Shown in pieces: positions 44,223-54,793 of a DNA stretch of 64,000 nt. The notes beneath the pieces were generated by a model. It was not told the DNA's origin. It did no database searches and saw only the letters and a program-made list of their open reading frames with translations. The position numbers and the translations under genes were made by a program. Positions within the stretch are counted from its first letter, which is position 1, and each line of letters begins with the position of its first letter. This DNA comes from Candidatus Heimdallarchaeota archaeon (GTDB lineage: Archaea; Asgardarchaeota; Heimdallarchaeia; JABLTI01): positions 96,001 through 160,000 of the forward strand of contig JABCTZ010000036.1 in assembly GCA_018238155.1 (NCBI GenBank), read 5' to 3'.

Positions 44223-46304
44223 TTGGAAGAAGAAACATTGACTACTAAAAAAATACGTTCACTCCTTTCTAATGAAGAACAAGAATTAATCAAATTAATT
44301 GGTTTCATCTCAAAAAGATATTCTTGGGAAACAAAAACACATCTCATACAAAGAGCTCAGTTGAAAAAGAAAAAGGATAAAAAAAGAACCAAATTTCTAC
44401 AAAAAATCGACTCAAAAAGAACTAAGCGTAAATATGTAGAGAGAATGAAGATACCTCTTCTTCCTTTACTTCTTAGTCAAGCTCTTACTCAAGGCATTCC
44501 TTTGAGAGAACCTCAACGAAAGAAAGGTAGCAGAGAAGAACCAAAACAATTGCTTGTTGATGTTCAAGAAAAATTCATTCCATCACAAGAATTCACTCAG
44601 TTTATTGAAGAGAATGATCTTTTCACTGAAAATGAATTTATTGAAGATTTACCTTTAAAAGACTTACAATTTATCTCCGACAAAATTTATTTACAGAGAA
44701 TAGATGCTGATAATTCTAAGATTCTCGTAAAAATGTATGTTAATTGGGGATACCTCTCTGAAGATAAATTGCCTTTATTTATTGATAAAAATGGGAATGA
44801 ACTTGCATATTGTTTAATTCATGTTTCTGATATTGAAAATAAATCGGTAGCTGTTTTCCCTTTAACACATAGATCACATTATCTTAGTGATATTGAAAAG
44901 ACAGCAGATTCATTATTTATTGGTATGATTTCTGAATTGAAACCAAATACAAAGTACAAGTATAGAATTGAATGCTATAAGAAAGAATGTTCTACCATTT
45001 TTGCTAGAACTAAATTATTTGCTTTTAGAACATCATTTAACTTGAATGAAAAAAACAAGCCAATTTTCTTCTCAGTAAGTTCAGATTTGCATGGAGGAAG
45101 AGATGGTGGATTTTTGCGTGGAAAAGTTCAAGCTTCAATACCAATAGGAAACACCGATTTAGGGCGAGTATTTCGAAGTTTGGTAGCAACAGAACAAAAA
45201 ATCACCTTTGGAGAAGGGTATTCTTTAGCTGTGGCAACTGGTGATTTAACTGAAAATGCTTTCTACAGTGAATATTGGGCTGATTTATTTACAAGATGTA
45301 GTCCTTTGTGGAATCATGTCCCTCTTTTAACCACTATTGGAAACCATGATTATTACACTGGTGGCAAAGGTCGGGGGCATGTATTGGGTGGTTTAGATGA
45401 AGATTGTCGATATTGGCATAAATATATTACAAATCCAGTTACAGGTCCAGGTGTGTTGCCTGGTCATTGGTATTCAATTGATCAAGGTAACGTTCATATG
45501 ATTTTTCTTGATACAAACGGTACTGGTTGGGGAAAATACAACATTGATTGTAATTCTGCTCAATGGCATTGGCTCGAAAATGATTTGAAAACATGGCGAG
45601 AAAAATTAGATCGAGGAGAAAAAGCCCCTGAAACCTGTCTTGTTTTCTTCCATTCGGCAATTTTTAGTTGTGGATTTTGGGGGCAAGGATTTGATTGGGG
45701 TAATGATGAAAAAGTTCAATCATACCTTACTCCCTTATTTAGAAAATATGGTGTAAGGATGGTACTCTTTGGACATGATCATATTTACCAGCGAACAAAA
45801 TGGATGAATACCCACTACCTTGTAAATGGACGTCATGGAGGAACAATGAGACCCGATTTCTTTTTCTTGAGAAACCGTGCATTATTTGATATTAATAGAT
45901 CGAGTAACAATAGAACTACAAGAGTTTATACTACATTTTATGTTCCTCCAAATAACAAACACTCTACAGATGAAGATCAAAGTGATTTTGTACTCTTCAA
46001 GAAAAAAATTCGCAATCAATTATTGAGTGAACCTACAAGCAGTTTCTTTTTCTTTGGACTTAGGAGAAATAATGTTCAAATTGGACGTATTTTTGATAAA
46101 CACAAGGAGAAAAAAGAGAAGCTTATCGATGATTTTATTCTGCCAAAGTTGGACACTCATTTATGGTTGAGAGCATTTGCTGTAGAACTGAACTCAGAAC
46201 CCAACGAAATGGAAATATTCGATATGGCATTTATTAGAATGACACCAATTGATACACAAGATAAACACTACATCTTCTCCTGCCCGGAGAAAGTAGTTAA
46301 TTGA
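44223..46304 (+). CDS. Purple-acid-phosphatase-like metallophosphoesterase with FN3-like domain and long N-terminal extension
   Basis: ELKPNTKYKYRI (FN3), SDLH, TGDL, IGNHD, FFHS, FGHDHIYQR. Confidence 0.85.
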   Translation: MEEETLTTKKIRSLLSNEEQELIKLIGFISKRYSWETKTHLIQRAQLKKKKDKKRTKFLQKIDSKRTKRKYVERMKIPLLPLLLSQALTQGIPLREPQRKKGSREEPKQLLVDVQEKFIPSQEFTQFIEENDLFTENEFIEDLPLKDLQFISDKIYLQRIDADNSKILVKMYVNWGYLSEDKLPLFIDKNGNELAYCLIHVSDIENKSVAVFPLTHRSHYLSDIEKTADSLFIGMISELKPNTKYKYRIECYKKECSTIFARTKLFAFRTSFNLNEKNKPIFFSVSSDLHGGRDGGFLRGKVQASIPIGNTDLGRVFRSLVATEQKITFGEGYSLAVATGDLTENAFYSEYWADLFTRCSPLWNHVPLLTTIGNHDYYTGGKGRGHVLGGLDEDCRYWHKYITNPVTGPGVLPGHWYSIDQGNVHMIFLDTNGTGWGKYNIDCNSAQWHWLENDLKTWREKLDRGEKAPETCLVFFHSAIFSCGFWGQGFDWGNDEKVQSYLTPLFRKYGVRMVLFGHDHIYQRTKWMNTHYLVNGRHGGTMRPDFFFLRNRALFDINRSSNNRTTRVYTTFYVPPNNKHSTDEDQSDFVLFKKKIRNQLLSEPTSSFFFFGLRRNNVQIGRIFDKHKEKKEKLIDDFILPKLDTHLWLRAFAVELNSEPNEMEIFDMAFIRMTPIDTQDKHYIFSCPEKVVN

Positions 46305-47442: not shown

Positions 47443-48723
47443 TTGGTTGATCTTAAGAAGAAATTACTAATATCAGACGATAAGCTAAAAACTATCAATG
47501 ATTTCTTTCTCAAAGAAGATAATCCGGTGATAGATGATTTATTAGCCGTTGTTGAAAAATACGGCGGTGTTGAAGAAATAAACAAAAAAGCTAACGAAGC
47601 ACGTAAATTGGATACTTTGCTAGCTAAATTGGAAAAAGTAAAACCAGAGTATGTTAAAGATTTGAACTGGTTAATAGAACAACGAGATAATGGTGCATTC
47701 ATTAGTATAGCTGATTATCGCAAAAAGATTCTCGGTGATAAAGCAGCTACAATGACTTTTGATGAGTCGTATGCAGTTACTCTTGAAATAAGTGCTTGTC
47801 AATACTTTCCATTTTTAATGGCTGAAGCAAAACAAGCAATTGAGAAGCAAGAATTAATGCCTGCAAGATATATTCGCGTCAGAAAAATGAAAGAACAAGA
47901 AGAAGATGGTGACATTCTTGCAATGGCTGCAGCAATGCAGATTATTGACGCATCTTATGTAGAAACCTTGGATACAAAAGGAACTGCTCCCGGACCTGAT
48001 GGCGCACCTGTAAATGTTCATCTTGGTGGTCCAGCTACTATTACTGGCTATTTCGGTGGAGTTGGTCAACCAAATGATTTTGGCATTAAATGGATTGACG
48101 AATTCTTGTATTATTACACTGAATATGGCATTAAGCAAGTTTTGAACATCAATCCTGGTACAGTCTTGCTTGGATATATGTTACACAAATTAGGTGTTGA
48201 TATGGAATTCAAAATCTCAGTTTTTATGGGAAATGATAATCCATACGCCTGTTTCTGGACATTAATGACAGCAAAACTCTTTAGCAGAGATGATGGGACA
48301 AGTCCATTGATTGGTTTTAATCTATCGAATTCTGTTAACAATAAAACTATGGAAGTCACTGCAGACTTTAGAAAAGATTTTGGTTTTGAAGACATAGTTC
48401 GATTTGAGCACCACATAACTGAAACATATAAGCACATTGTTAGACAACCATATGATCGAACAGATGAACTTGTAGAGTTAGCAAAGACTGTGAAAAATGT
48501 CAGTGCTAAACACGAAGGCGGGAAAGTGGCGATAGAAGAAACACGAAAATATCAATCTGATATTTTAGATTACTTTAGAGATAAATCTGAAGTAATTGAA
48601 AAAGGGGATATGGAAAATATGATGATCAATTATCTAGACAAACATCATTCATTGAATTTCACTGCAGAAGCTTTAACCAAGAACGGTTTGACCTTTATAG
48701 CTGCAGGAAAATTACACAAATGA
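47443..48723 (+). CDS. Conserved hypothetical protein, possibly a U32-like TIM barrel
   Basis: Long ORF with enzyme-like Gly/His motifs (NVHLGGPATITGYFGGVGQPND, FKISVFMGNDNP, RFEHH, SAKHEGG); 25 bp upstream of the DapA-Fae gene. Confidence 0.7.
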   Translation: MVDLKKKLLISDDKLKTINDFFLKEDNPVIDDLLAVVEKYGGVEEINKKANEARKLDTLLAKLEKVKPEYVKDLNWLIEQRDNGAFISIADYRKKILGDKAATMTFDESYAVTLEISACQYFPFLMAEAKQAIEKQELMPARYIRVRKMKEQEEDGDILAMAAAMQIIDASYVETLDTKGTAPGPDGAPVNVHLGGPATITGYFGGVGQPNDFGIKWIDEFLYYYTEYGIKQVLNINPGTVLLGYMLHKLGVDMEFKISVFMGNDNPYACFWTLMTAKLFSRDDGTSPLIGFNLSNSVNNKTMEVTADFRKDFGFEDIVRFEHHITETYKHIVRQPYDRTDELVELAKTVKNVSAKHEGGKVAIEETRKYQSDILDYFRDKSEVIEKGDMENMMINYLDKHHSLNFTAEALTKNGLTFIAAGKLHK

Positions 48724-48748
48724 AAAATGTTAATGGGAGCTGAAAATA

Positions 48749-50263
48749 TTGGCTAAATTCTTACCCGGAGGAGTCAGTCCAGCGTTAGTGACTCCTTTTA
48801 CTAAAAAAGATGAACTTGATGAAGAAGCTTATCGAAAACTGATCAGATTTGTTATCGATGACTTAGGTGTTACTGGAATTGTTCCTGCAGGCTCGACTGG
48901 AGAATTCTCCTCTCTCTTTTGGGATGAACAAAAGAGAATAATAGAAATTGCTGTTGAAGAAGCAAATGGAAAAGTAGATGTGATGGCTGGAACTGGTACT
49001 AGTGGTACTAAACGAACAATCGCAATGACCAAACATGCAAAAGATGTTGGTGCAGATGCTGCATTAGTTATTACTCCTTATTACATGAAACCAACCCAAA
49101 GAGGGTTGTACAAACATTACTCAACACTTGCAGATAAAGTTGATATGCCAATAATGGTGTATCAATTACCCGCTTTGACTGACGTAGTTTTACCGCGAAT
49201 GGTAGTCGAAGATTTAGCAGTTGAACATGAGAATATTGTTGGTATGAAATGTTCTTGGGGAAGCATGCCTTATCTTATGGAAATACTCGAGAGAGTAAAA
49301 CCTGTTGCCCCTGACTTTAAGATCTTGTGTGGTTGGGATGAAATTGTATTCCCAGCACTCGCAGCCGGTGTAGATGGATGTATCCTTGCTTCAGCTAATT
49401 TCATAGGAGACCATTGGGTTAAAATCAAGAAATTGGTTGATACCGGAAAATTCGTAGAAGCACGCAAAGCTGAAATGGAAATCCACAAGCTAACACGCAT
49501 AGCCGTGAAAACTGGTGGAGCAGGAGCAAAAGAAGCACTCAATATGATGGGCATTAAAGTACGAAAACCAAGACTACCATTAGAAATTGGTGGAAGTATC
49601 AGTCACGAGCTTCGTTCTGAATTGCGTCTTGAACTTGAGAGAATTGGTAAGATCAAGAAAGAAGTTAGAATTGCTTTACCAGAAACCAAAGAGAAAATCG
49701 AAGAACGATTTGGAGCTGTGGAAATTACTCTTGAAACAATCCTCCAAAACAAACTCTTGGTTGGTGAAGGCTTCTTTGGTGGTGATCGCCCAGAAATGGC
49801 TCATATAGATCTTCTAATTGGTCCTCGAGATGGACCAGTAGGAGTAGCTTTTGCAAAAGGTATTGCTTTAGTGAAAGACGATCCTTCTACAGTCGAAGGA
49901 CACGAACCATTATTAGCTCTTCTTGAAACCAATGAGTCTGTGAAACCTGAAACATTGTTAGTTCCAAAAGTATTCATCCGAAATCTACGACAAGCAGCAA
50001 TGGTTTTTGGACCAGTACAATCAGGTGTTGCTAAAGCAGTTATAGAATGTGTGAAAGATGGTTTTATTCCTGAAAAGTATGTGAAAGATCTAGTCATTAT
50101 TGCTAGTGTCTTTGTACATCCAACAGCTGTCTCAAGAAATCGAGTCTATGTGAATAACAAAAAAGCAACTGTTATGGCTATTAGGAACGCTATAGAAGGA
50201 AAACCAGATTTGGATTACTTGTTCGATGCTCCTGGAAGGCATCCACTAAAGAATGAACCATAA
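48749..50263 (+). CDS. DapA/NAL-family class I aldolase fused to a formaldehyde-activating enzyme (Fae) domain
   Basis: N-terminus: ALVTPF, GSTGEF, TPYY, VYQLP, GMKCS. From ~49754: VGEG..G...EMAHIDLLIGPRDGPVGVAF...GH.PLLA....VKP.TL.VPKV.I....QA..VFGP.Q.GVAKAV...V.DG.IP...VFVHP...N..AT..AI..A..G.P...HP. Confidence 0.9.
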   Translation: MAKFLPGGVSPALVTPFTKKDELDEEAYRKLIRFVIDDLGVTGIVPAGSTGEFSSLFWDEQKRIIEIAVEEANGKVDVMAGTGTSGTKRTIAMTKHAKDVGADAALVITPYYMKPTQRGLYKHYSTLADKVDMPIMVYQLPALTDVVLPRMVVEDLAVEHENIVGMKCSWGSMPYLMEILERVKPVAPDFKILCGWDEIVFPALAAGVDGCILASANFIGDHWVKIKKLVDTGKFVEARKAEMEIHKLTRIAVKTGGAGAKEALNMMGIKVRKPRLPLEIGGSISHELRSELRLELERIGKIKKEVRIALPETKEKIEERFGAVEITLETILQNKLLVGEGFFGGDRPEMAHIDLLIGPRDGPVGVAFAKGIALVKDDPSTVEGHEPLLALLETNESVKPETLLVPKVFIRNLRQAAMVFGPVQSGVAKAVIECVKDGFIPEKYVKDLVIIASVFVHPTAVSRNRVYVNNKKATVMAIRNAIEGKPDLDYLFDAPGRHPLKNEP

Positions 50264-50324: not shown

Positions 50325-51104
50325 CTATTGCTTACCTTTTCTGAAGCTAACTAATTCCGGTTGAACAAAATTCAATGCTTTTTCGAATCTCTTCTTATCC
50401 CTTTTCATTCCAAGAAATTTAGTTATTTGTTTAATAGTTTTCTCAGATTTGTTAAGTAAATCATCAAAAGTAATTATTAGGCATTTCTTATTTTCAGTAA
50501 CCTTATCCATTTTTGAGTATGAGCTGGTTATTAGTTGTTCGAGGAATTTTTTGTTTTCTAATAATCTTCCATTTGCAAAATAATTTGCTAATAATCTTAT
50601 GACCAAATATGTTCGATAAATATGGTTATCGAAGAGGCTTAGCTCATGATTGAATGATGAATAGAAATTAGTTTGAACGCTGATTTTCATAATTGAATTT
50701 GCAATTTGTTTCACATCTCTCTTTAGAATTATGTAATGTGGATTTTCAAGCAAACTATCAATATAATATATTATGTGAAATGATGATGGATCTTTCCAAC
50801 CCCAATATGGTTCTTTTCTATTTCTAGCAATTGTTTCCAGAGTTAGTTCCCAGTTTTTCTCAACTGCTTGTTTAATTTTAGATTCTGAAGGATAATCAAA
50901 ATAGATTCCTGAAGAACCTGCATCATATAAAATTCTATGACTTAATTTTAAAAAATCTTGATTTTCAAAACAACCATACTTGTTAACATGTTGCCCTTTT
51001 ATCAGATCACTTTTCTTTCCCATGTACACTCCTAAATAATGTAAAATACCAGAGAGCACGGTAGACCCTGATCGCAACAAACATAATGGTATAACTGTTT
51101 TCAT
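50325..51104 (-). CDS. Sulfotransferase-family (P-loop) protein
   Basis: LRSGST (PAPS 5'-PSB-like loop), GCFEN, WGWKDP, TFDDLL. Confidence 0.75.
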   Translation of the reverse strand: MKTVIPLCLLRSGSTVLSGILHYLGVYMGKKSDLIKGQHVNKYGCFENQDFLKLSHRILYDAGSSGIYFDYPSESKIKQAVEKNWELTLETIARNRKEPYWGWKDPSSFHIIYYIDSLLENPHYIILKRDVKQIANSIMKISVQTNFYSSFNHELSLFDNHIYRTYLVIRLLANYFANGRLLENKKFLEQLITSSYSKMDKVTENKKCLIITFDDLLNKSEKTIKQITKFLGMKRDKKRFEKALNFVQPELVSFRKGKQ

Positions 51105-51108
51105 TTAG

Positions 51109-52872
51109 CTAGAACTTCCCTTTTATATTGACAAAATCGTCTTCAGAGTAGTTATTTATCTTACTAAAATTATGTATTTTCCATACGTTAATAATTTCAT
51201 CAAATGTTAATTCTTTGAGAATTTTACTTAATATTACTCTCATTAATACTTCCTTTGTATAAGGTCTCTTAGAATCTTGAAATGCAATTGCTTTTAATAA
51301 GTTCTTAGAAATTCTAGAATTAAGTGCAGTACAACCAAAAAGAGCTTCATCGTATGTTTCAAAACCGAGGTAATAACAAGTATCATCCAGCATAACAGGT
51401 TGATTGTTAATGGGACTAATTAAAGCGAAGATTGGTTCTTTATACATAGCACCAATGGCTATTTTGAATGGACGAAAGGCATATTCCCCAATACCAAAAA
51501 TTGAAAATGGAGCTTTGTTTTTATAGATAGAAGATTTTCTTTTGGTGAAGTATTCAATTTTTGAGTTCAGATAGTCCCAAATCTTCGGATATTTTGATTC
51601 AATGTATGCCGTATCTTCGTTCAACTTTTTGTGTGGAATGATTATTCTTCTTTTCGTTTCTATTATTTCAAATGTTCTCAAGTTTGATCCTTTTAACAAA
51701 GGATAGAGTAATTTCTGTTCGAAATCTAAAATTTCTCCTAATTTGTTCGTTAATTGATGATCTTTGTTAAAAGACAGCTCCAATACTTTCGAGCAATCAT
51801 GTTTTACTCCTTGTCGCCATACATGTTTTGATTTACCATCAAAAACGTTGACTTTTTTATACTTCTCAAAATCTGAGACAAATTTGTTATCTATCCAACC
51901 AAATTTTCTAATTAGAATTTCAGGTGCATCCAAATCATAAACCTTGCAATAGTGTGCTTCATTTGAAGCATTTAAATCAAAAATAAATAATGATGCATTG
52001 CAAGATTTCCCAAATTCTTTCGTAGCATCAATTTGATATTGTTGTAAATTGCTTATTTTCTTGTCAGAGGTTAGAAGGCTTTTTGTGATATTTCTTATTA
52101 CGGTGTTTTTACAGAGCAAAGCTACTTTACCTTCACAACTGGAGAAATTATCGATTATTTTTTGAATTATTGATTCAGCAATATCGAAATTGCTCTTTCC
52201 TGTTAAAGCTTCAAGCCCAACTAACTTCATCTTATTGCTTTTATTTGGAAGATTACTTGAATTCAGAGAGCTTAATTCAGCATTTGTGATCCACGGGGGA
52301 TTTCCAACTATCAGAATGGGTGTATGCTCTAGAGAACTAATTAGCTCCTTAAAATCGTGACTAAAAATATTATCTCTATGAACAAATATATCTAATTCTG
52401 GTATTGGTTCCTCTGTATATCTTTGTAAAAGAGAATTGATACCAAAATTCCAAATGCGCTCTTTTTGAATTTCTATTCCATAAACAGCTCCCGCATTTGG
52501 AAAATACTCCGATATTTGAAGAATAAAATTACCATCACCAAATGTTGGCTCAATGATGAGCCCAGGTTGGATGCCTGTCAATGTAATTAAATTCAATACT
52601 TTTTTCACTAAACTTGGTGGAGTTTGGATATCTGCCCATTCATTACTTTTAGGTATTATTTTTGAATTCTTGCCATGTGACTTCGTTAAGATTAGATGGC
52701 TCTTGAATTCAAGTAATTCTTCTTGAGAGCTGAAAAAATTAGTTATTCGTGTTAGACCTCTGAAGATTTCATTTGCTTTTTCGTAATTTGTTGATTTGTC
52801 AAAAAGTGATATAATAGTTGAAAAATATTTTCTTATATCCTCTTCATTCAAATTTACGAATTCTCCTGTCAT
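51109..52872 (-). CDS. N6-adenine/N4-cytosine DNA methyltransferase (gamma-type order, motif I then NPPW) with TaqI-like C-terminal TRD
   Basis: QTP, IEPTFGDGNF (motif I), GIEI, VGNPPW (motif IV), WRQGVKHD. Confidence 0.85.
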   Translation of the reverse strand: MTGEFVNLNEEDIRKYFSTIISLFDKSTNYEKANEIFRGLTRITNFFSSQEELLEFKSHLILTKSHGKNSKIIPKSNEWADIQTPPSLVKKVLNLITLTGIQPGLIIEPTFGDGNFILQISEYFPNAGAVYGIEIQKERIWNFGINSLLQRYTEEPIPELDIFVHRDNIFSHDFKELISSLEHTPILIVGNPPWITNAELSSLNSSNLPNKSNKMKLVGLEALTGKSNFDIAESIIQKIIDNFSSCEGKVALLCKNTVIRNITKSLLTSDKKISNLQQYQIDATKEFGKSCNASLFIFDLNASNEAHYCKVYDLDAPEILIRKFGWIDNKFVSDFEKYKKVNVFDGKSKHVWRQGVKHDCSKVLELSFNKDHQLTNKLGEILDFEQKLLYPLLKGSNLRTFEIIETKRRIIIPHKKLNEDTAYIESKYPKIWDYLNSKIEYFTKRKSSIYKNKAPFSIFGIGEYAFRPFKIAIGAMYKEPIFALISPINNQPVMLDDTCYYLGFETYDEALFGCTALNSRISKNLLKAIAFQDSKRPYTKEVLMRVILSKILKELTFDEIINVWKIHNFSKINNYSEDDFVNIKGKF

Positions 52873-54106: not shown

Positions 54107-54793
54107 GTGCCTTCAAATGTAGTATTAAGTTTAAAAGCAAAAACAAGACATGTTATGTTGGAACAAATTATTTTAGCAGAGTTTTCAAAAATAGCTATTT
54201 TAGAAATACGAGCAGATTTTTTGATAGCAAGTGAACTTACTTTTGAAGTCATGCAAATGATTCGAAAAGCTACCAGTAAACAAATTATTTTCACTCTCAG
54301 AAAAGAAAGTGAAGGAGGTTTTTGTTCTTTTTCTGATGCTGAACGATATGAATTCTATAAAAGCGCTATGGATCTTGGTTATGATTATATCGATGTGGAA
54401 TATTCTTCGAAAGATCTAGTACAAAAGTTATTTGAAGAAAAGCATTCCTCAAAGATCATTCTCTCATATCACAATTTTAGAGATACTAATCCTGTGGAAA
54501 TTACTAATACTTATCTTGATATGTGTTATCAGAAACCTGATGTAATAAAAATTGCTACAATGGCCAATAAAGAAACTGATAATGAAATTCTTCAAGAGTT
54601 ACTCAATGGGCACAAAATCAATTCTACAGATTTAACTTGTTTTTGTATTGGTGACCTTGGAAAGAAGAGTAGGATCTCTAATATGAAAAATAGTAATTCA
54701 TTAACATTTGTTGCAACAGAGAAAAGAAGAAAAACATTCCCCGGACAACTTACTTATGAAGAATTATTAAGAATAAAAGATGAACCGATTTAG
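54107..54793 (+). CDS. aroD: Type I 3-dehydroquinate dehydratase
   Basis: EIRAD, IFTLRKESEGG, YIDVE, SYHNF (catalytic His), IKIA (Schiff-base Lys), PGQL. Confidence 0.85.
   Translation: MPSNVVLSLKAKTRHVMLEQIILAEFSKIAILEIRADFLIASELTFEVMQMIRKATSKQIIFTLRKESEGGFCSFSDAERYEFYKSAMDLGYDYIDVEYSSKDLVQKLFEEKHSSKIILSYHNFRDTNPVEITNTYLDMCYQKPDVIKIATMANKETDNEILQELLNGHKINSTDLTCFCIGDLGKKSRISNMKNSNSLTFVATEKRRKTFPGQLTYEELLRIKDEPI

Follow-up and report, generated by a model that had tools for sequence, protein, structure and literature searches.

What does an Asgard archaeon do with a DapA-type aldolase fused to a formaldehyde-activating enzyme (Fae)? The question is raised by a gene in a 64,000-nucleotide stretch of Candidatus Heimdallarchaeota archaeon DNA (contig JABCTZ010000036.1, positions 96,001 to 160,000 of the forward strand), which we call the window. 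We found that this fusion alternates with homoserine dehydrogenase (HSD) across two archaeal phyla, follows a marker of the tetrahydromethanopterin (H4MPT) C1 pathway, and neighbours a conserved protein family that elsewhere clusters with homoserine and threonine genes. On balance, we think it probable that the fusion is a biosynthetic aldolase that makes 4-hydroxy-2-oxobutanoate (HOB) from methylene-H4MPT and pyruvate for conversion to homoserine, replacing HSD, with its partner acting at the same node.

The gene and its parts, numbered from the first letter of the window, are as follows.

48749..50263, + strand: aldolase-Fae fusion gene, 504 aa plus stop, TTG start, a single open reading frame (ORF) without internal stops
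48735..48739, + strand: putative ribosome-binding site GGGAG, by sequence inspection, about 8–13 nt 5' of the TTG start
48767..49627, + strand: DHDPS/NAL-family class I (Schiff-base) aldolase domain, aa 7–293 (PF00701, E 9e-72)
49175..49177, + strand: codon of Leu143, the counterpart of Arg138 in E. coli DHDPS, a residue that binds the carboxylate of aspartate semialdehyde (as aligned with DHDPS structures 2EHH and 2YXG)
49628..49759, + strand: conserved linker, aa 294–337, LELE(K/R)IGK ... EERF, with L296, E297, G300, K301, R320 and F321 invariant
49760..50227, + strand: Fae domain, aa 338–493, complete (PF08714, E 2e-48)
50228..50260, + strand: conserved C-terminal tail ..RHPLKNEP, aa 494–504, with H498, P499 and P504 invariant

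Both halves have the residues expected of working domains. The aldolase part contains G48-S-T-G-E52 and an active-site set of Lys167 (49247-49249, in GMKCS), Tyr138 (49160-49162, in YQLPALT), Tyr112 and Thr50, and the Fae part has His352 in AHID. An earlier note on this DNA, made from the letters alone, had named the GSTGE motif, the catalytic Tyr, the Schiff-base Lys and the AHID His, all of which are present in the translation. It was also right that YQLPALT lacks the DHDPS Arg: the Arg of YN(I/V)PSRT in solved DHDPS structures aligns with Leu143. Its start for the Fae similarity, about position 49754, agrees with the Pfam boundary at 49760. The Fae domain aligns along its length with M. extorquens Fae (1Y5Y, E 1e-27), relative to which it carries an insertion. 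The Fae profiles score far above their cutoffs (PF08714, 165 bits against 27; TIGR03126 fae, 167 bits against 118). In an alignment of 17 diverse family members, to which all our statements of invariance within the fusion refer, K167, Tyr138, Tyr112, Thr50, a G-x-D-E motif and the linker residues are invariant, as are the Fae motifs A351-H352-x-D354 and F455-V-H-P458 and the HP...P of the C-terminal tail. An Rfam scan of the window gave no match at gathering level.

The earlier note had left room for a one-off or an assembly chimera. A scan of species-representative genomes rules out both: at least 572 species genomes encode the fusion, and full-length two-domain homologues (41–98% identity) are abundant in protein collections and span several phyla, under the database name "4-hydroxy-tetrahydrodipicolinate synthase". 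Carriers are mostly Bathyarchaeia and Asgard archaea (Heimdall-, Hod-, Loki-, Thor- and Borrarchaeia), with others among the Methanofastidiosia, Thermoplasmata, Anaerolineae/Chloroflexota and Thermodesulfobacteriota. Bacteria and Thermoplasmata have tandem pairs of fusion paralogues (L088:10001-12904, L083:6538-9443 and L079:9965-13213; also L093, L090 and L092), and genomes of Asgard family f10 have two adjacent matches. In paralogue A, the Fae His and the C-terminal tail are gone; paralogue B has retained both, but its central Fae region (GPAQ) is degenerate. The aldolase Lys is kept in each. These complementary losses within the Fae domain suggest an obligate heteromer. The single-gene form found in the window retains every feature that the tandem paralogues lose.

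The strongest clue to function came from comparing gene content among genomes of at least 85% completeness (121 Asgard, 111 Bathyarchaeia). Among the Asgard genomes, 48 had the fusion only, 45 HSD only, 9 both and 19 neither (odds ratio 0.08); the corresponding counts for Bathyarchaeia were 30, 61, 7 and 13 (odds ratio 0.05). The alternation is visible between Asgard families:

f10: fusion in 25/27 genomes, HSD in 1/27
f16: fusion in 6/7, HSD in 0/7
f17: fusion in 3/3, HSD in 0/3
f2: fusion in 0/14, HSD in 10/14
f4: fusion in 0/7, HSD in 7/7
f7: fusion in 0/4, HSD in 4/4
f20: fusion in 0/6, HSD in 5/6

It recurs between genera within the mixed family f13. One of the seven Bathyarchaeia genomes scored as having both genes (G224) has merely a remnant of the fusion, interrupted by two TGA stops and one TAA stop (G224:C8:518030-520183) and lying about 650 bp from an intact HSD gene, which looks like a snapshot of one system displacing the other. 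We regard the near mutual exclusion of fusion and HSD in two phyla as strong but not conclusive evidence. The window's own genome (4.08 Mb, 90.7% complete) conforms to it: HSD (PF00742) was not detected there, with the family found in 14/14 control genomes, and its threonine synthase is bona fide (NF006050, 553 bits against a cutoff of 303).

Fusion presence also follows H4MPT metabolism. Mch was found in 55 of 57 fusion-positive Asgard genomes compared with 29 of 64 fusion-negative ones, and within the Heimdall class the window's family alone has Mch and alone has the fusion. The aspartate branch that normally leads to homoserine is thinned out in carriers. Searches for archaeal-type Asd came up empty in f16, f17, f21 and most of f10. 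PF02774, the general Asd domain family, is detected in 14/14 controls but gave no match in two fusion carriers, G011 and G012 (the latter a single contig). In Bathyarchaeia, Asd-like genes were present in 10/37 fusion-positive versus 64/74 fusion-negative genomes. ThrC-family matches (E <= 1e-35) were nonetheless found in all genomes of f10 (27/27), f16 (7/7) and f17 (3/3), and carriers with ThrC that lack HSD and Asd apparently need homoserine without having the usual route to it. Canonical ThrB proved uninformative as a marker of the homoserine-to-threonine segment: it exceeded the cutoff in only 10/121 Asgard genomes, whatever their HSD status, with ThrC nearly universal there.

The immediate neighbourhood points to the same part of metabolism. 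Directly before the fusion lies a co-directional gene:

47443..48723, + strand: partner gene P0122, encoding a highly conserved but uncharacterised protein of 426 aa that resembles a TIM barrel; 25 nt upstream of the fusion

The TTG start of the fusion is thus 25 nt past the P0122 stop codon. P0122 has more than 8000 homologues, which share 62–100% identity across Asgard archaea and Bathyarchaeia, and had no match in Pfam, NCBIfam, PDB sequences or an ESM-Atlas feature search. Among 77 fetched loci with a full fusion ORF, a P0122 homologue adjoins the fusion in 48, co-directionally and 9–26 bp upstream in Asgard genomes and divergently in Bathyarchaeia. In 11 of the 77, a protein of about 316 aa, the L003-type partner, takes the place of P0122; the two types are mutually exclusive. 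In the Asgard sample, the L003-type is found in exactly those fusion-positive families that lack P0122, and one or other partner is present in 54 of 57 fusion-positive genomes. By hhalign (probability 69%, E 4e-5), the P0122 and L003-type families appear to be distant homologues.

Structure prediction placed both partners among TIM barrels, and fold searches returned only generic TIM-barrel or U32-like results. The AF2 model of P0122 (pLDDT 76) matched generic TIM barrels at Z 10–11, and its invariant loop, residues 178–211 (KGTAPGPDGAPVNVHLGGPxTITGYFGGVGQPN), is modelled with low confidence. The L003-type model (pLDDT 91) is a TIM barrel with PDB TM scores of 0.47–0.58 to class II aldolases and the U32 protein Mk0906; in the ESM Atlas it reached TM 0.86–0.94 to uncharacterised clusters, one with 23% U32 annotation, and it matched the peptidase U32 profile PF01136 weakly (E 0.22). 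A complex prediction for the fusion with P0122 gave a score of 0.00 (mark 0.32), which counts neither way.

In f2, f4 and f5, Heimdall families negative for both fusion and Mch, and in Hodarchaeales, P0122 is followed by a class I aminotransferase and then HSD; these HSD genes are genuine (415–427 bits against a cutoff of 373), and in f2, P0122 and HSD occur in the same ten genomes and in no others. In two families, a 598–599-aa gene resembling the aldehyde:ferredoxin oxidoreductase family (AOR) comes directly after HSD (L100:7130-8926, L101:6960-8759), and its product might convert aspartate to aspartate semialdehyde or oxidize the aldehyde. Elsewhere, in f10 (checked at L107 and L108) and at a Loki locus (L013), P0122 lies near ThrC. 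Here ThrC bears a C-terminal PadR-like domain and is followed by a divergent ECF S-component-like gene (TIGR04002) and then the P0122 homologue (L107:2147-5744, L108:2215-5749, L013:2674-6278), a layout conserved in Thor-like and Loki genomes. Because the P0122 family is linked to the fusion, to aminotransferase plus HSD or to ThrC according to lineage, all of these are placed at the homoserine/HOB/threonine node. Families f3 and f7, which lack P0122, have canonical ThrB, a pattern that fits, without proving, a ThrB-like step supplied by P0122.

Taken together, these data are consistent with the following scheme, set in anaerobic archaea with an H4MPT C1 pathway. The Fae domain would interconvert methylene-H4MPT with H4MPT and enzyme-held formaldehyde. 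In the aldolase domain, the enamine formed by Lys167 with pyruvate would add to the formaldehyde supplied by Fae, giving HOB, which a transaminase would convert to homoserine for onward use by threonine synthase. The fusion would thereby stand in for HSD and, in some lineages, for the whole branch from aspartate through aspartate semialdehyde to homoserine. The TIM-barrel partner, whether P0122 or its shorter distant homologue, would act at the homoserine/HOB node, possibly in a homoserine-kinase-like step, and the aldolase-Fae fusion and the HSD-plus-aminotransferase set would be alternative entries to that node, chosen by availability of the H4MPT pathway. We infer the substrates pyruvate and formaldehyde, the product HOB, the direction, the channelling between domains and the partner reaction from sequence and gene content. 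What favours the biosynthetic direction is the retention of threonine synthase in carriers, which often lack HSD and often also Asd. The earlier note had proposed a Fae-Hps-like link between a 4-hydroxy-2-oxoacid, with HOB and homoserine as its example, and pterin-bound C1 units, in either direction. That link gains support from the HSD exclusivity, Mch and the partner clusters; the evidence favours synthesis over the cleavage implied by its example of HOB derived from homoserine. The H4MPT-pathway gene mch, one of four that it had suggested looking for (mtd, mch, ftr and mptG), is present twice in the window's genome. A wider claim, that homoserine and threonine are made independently of the aspartate pathway in many Asgard archaea, Bathyarchaeia and other anaerobes, via methylene-H4MPT and pyruvate, with the P0122 family contributing a new enzyme of the route (for example, a non-orthologous homoserine kinase), is possible but one we hold more tentatively.

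Several observations weigh against this proposal. Kinship among genomes limits the independence of the counts, and a family-level majority table of fusion versus HSD gives p = 0.02. Fusion and HSD do coexist in the 9 Asgard and 7 Bathyarchaeia genomes counted above. The 19 Asgard genomes with neither, two of them single contigs, mostly keep ThrC-like genes, so ThrC is no proof of a homoserine gap; a non-homologous HSD may also escape detection in fusion-positive genomes. Asd is present in f13 and in the window's genome, a caveat on the missing aspartate branch. The genomes with the P0122–aminotransferase–HSD cluster lack Asd, which could mean a partner that produces HOB, with the fusion as its sink, or, alternatively, a supply of aspartate semialdehyde from aspartate by the AOR-like enzyme next to HSD. 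No aminotransferase is clustered with the fusion in the fetched loci, and the closest relatives of the P0122-cluster aminotransferase in the window's genome are only 35–36% identical, with no close orthologue. The bacterial carriers (Anaerolineae, Thermodesulfobacteriota) are not known to use H4MPT. Finally, support for a HOB-aldolase activity is indirect, from HSD complementarity and partner linkage, and its substrate, cofactor and direction are all predictions.

How else might the protein be read? The assigned name implies a genuine DapA, with Fae attached for an unrelated or regulatory reason, and there are grounds for it: the fusion passes the TIGR00674 dapA cutoff, marginally (212.4 bits against 206.15), the closest solved structures to its aldolase part are DHDPS enzymes (Aquifex, E 8e-53; M. 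jannaschii, E 9e-50) ahead of E. coli YagE (E 4e-42), and neither of the other two DHDPS-family genes in its genome is as DapA-like. However, the residue equivalent to Arg138 is C, L, V or A across the family (Leu here) and never R; a search for DapB (DapB_C, PF05173) that was positive in 11/14 control genomes found none in this genome, which is 90.7% complete; and both domains and the linker are conserved together across phyla. Since the Arg is never present, the dapA score is marginal and DapB was not found, we do not file the fusion as DapA, in line with the initial suspicion that it is not a DHDPS, and consider a true DapA highly improbable. Doubt could instead attach to the other half: a Fae-like domain that handles another aldehyde or pterin, or serves as an oligomerization scaffold, beside an aldolase that cleaves a larger 2-keto-3-deoxy acid. 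H4MPT may be absent from bacterial carriers, each Fae-like domain of the tandem pairs is partly degenerate, and the insertion relative to M. extorquens Fae would fit such a change. Against this, the single-gene archaeal form has all the conserved Fae motifs and clears the Fae equivalog cutoff by a wide margin, and fusion presence tracks Mch, which makes this reading quite improbable.

Other alternatives keep both activities and change the chemistry or its direction. With a different 2-oxoacid, such as 2-oxobutanoate, 2-oxoisovalerate or hydroxypyruvate, the fusion would be a PanB-like methylene-pterin hydroxymethyltransferase making ketopantoate or a related product. PanB does such chemistry with methylene-tetrahydrofolate (methylene-H4F), and the nucleophile cannot be read from sequence, but the window's genome has a canonical PanB (353 bits), on which ground we rejected PanB replacement as the leading interpretation, and this reading would leave both the HSD exclusivity and the linkage of the partner to HSD and ThrC unexplained; we consider it improbable. 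Catabolism deserves more attention. Here HOB, formed from homoserine or made by the partner from another precursor, would be cleaved to pyruvate and formaldehyde, the latter caught by Fae as methylene-H4MPT and passed on to oxidation or acetogenesis; lineages that lack H4MPT would drain HOB through the aminotransferase and HSD. This follows the known logic of Fae-Hps, in which Fae mops up formaldehyde released by the aldolase, and a canonical Fae-Hps is present in the same genome (NF009833, 510 bits). The absence of Asd from P0122–aminotransferase–HSD genomes would also suit it, as HSD may run there from homoserine to aspartate semialdehyde, with P0122 upstream of HOB; dependence on Mch suits either direction equally. 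Yet fusion-positive genomes that lack HSD, and often Asd, keep ThrC and would still need a source of homoserine, HOB has no known precursor that is both plausible and abundant, and near-exclusivity with a biosynthetic dehydrogenase in two phyla would be odd for a single catabolic step. Catabolism is thus unlikely, and biosynthesis of HOB remains the reading we prefer.

Another DHDPS-family gene of the same genome has peculiarities of its own. In this paralogue (L009:1501-2391, on contig C3), the profile match starts about 50 codons before the first ATG/GTG/TTG, and CNVPIYS replaces YNVPxRT, so that Tyr and Arg are both missing; it may use an unusual start codon or be non-catalytic. Around the fusion, TrmI/GCD14, AhpC, UDP-glucose dehydrogenase, an M24 peptidase and a nitroreductase are also enriched as neighbours; we rejected these as a functional signal, attributing them to lineage-specific synteny. 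The window further contains:

44223-46304, + strand: 693-aa metallophosphoesterase, amid TPR-repeat genes
50325-51104, − strand: sulfotransferase-like gene, co-oriented with the next
51109-52872, − strand: 587-aa ORF without a Pfam match, upstream of the sulfotransferase-like gene
54107-54793: type I 3-dehydroquinase

A full-text literature search found no description of an aldolase-Fae fusion or of a natural HOB route. If the proposal is correct, the textbook homoserine branch would be replaced in sediment archaea that form large and ecologically dominant groups, relatives of the eukaryotic ancestor among them. An aldol route from C1 units and pyruvate, thought to be limited to engineered E. 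coli, would have a natural form, a counterpart of the synthetic homoserine cycle, and Wood-Ljungdahl C1 metabolism would be connected to amino-acid synthesis in a previously unseen way. Hundreds of genomes in which the gene is systematically misnamed "4-hydroxy-tetrahydrodipicolinate synthase" could be corrected, metabolic reconstructions of Asgard archaea and Bathyarchaeia would change along with the auxotrophies predicted for them, and the very large, conserved and annotation-free P0122 family would gain a functional context. Projects in synthetic C1 assimilation would gain a natural aldolase dedicated to HOB, in which formaldehyde channelling is built in.

Four known systems help to place the fusion. 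With DapA/DHDPS and the other PF00701 pyruvate aldolases (NAL, KDG aldolase, YagE/YjhH), it shares the fold and the Lys/Tyr/Thr/Tyr catalytic set, but it lacks the aspartate-semialdehyde Arg and the context of the DAP pathway, and adds a linker, a Fae domain and a tail. Archaeal Fae-Hps (NF009833), a bifunctional 5,6,7,8-tetrahydromethanopterin hydro-lyase/3-hexulose-6-phosphate synthase, similarly combines Fae with an aldolase that forms or breaks a C–C bond to formaldehyde, thereby connecting C1 units on H4MPT with central carbon. In the fusion, the two domains come in the opposite order, aldolase N-terminal and Fae C-terminal; its aldolase is a Schiff-base DapA/NAL barrel rather than a metal-dependent OMPDC-type Hps; and its proposed substrate is a 2-oxoacid rather than ribulose-5-phosphate, in a context of homoserine and threonine rather than pentose-phosphate synthesis. 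Consistent with this, NF009833 matched only the Fae part of the fusion (profile positions 3–150 of 392; 127.5 bits against 274), with no Hps domain. PanB, the methylene-H4F-dependent ketopantoate hydroxymethyltransferase, likewise transfers a hydroxymethyl group from a methylene-pterin onto C3 of a 2-oxoacid, but has an unrelated fold and mechanism, is metal-dependent and uses methylene-H4F directly. The closest parallel in chemistry is engineered. That pyruvate and formaldehyde can be converted to HOB and then homoserine is established chemistry with other aldolases, and the synthetic homoserine cycle is built on it; its HOB step uses promiscuous class II (metal) aldolases, E. coli RhmA/YfaU and relatives (PMC7918591). 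The reaction we propose, followed by transamination to homoserine, is the same as in that cycle (PMC7918591). Whereas the cycle runs on free formaldehyde in engineered E. coli, the fusion would be a natural class I enzyme that draws formaldehyde from methylene-H4MPT through its fused Fae domain.

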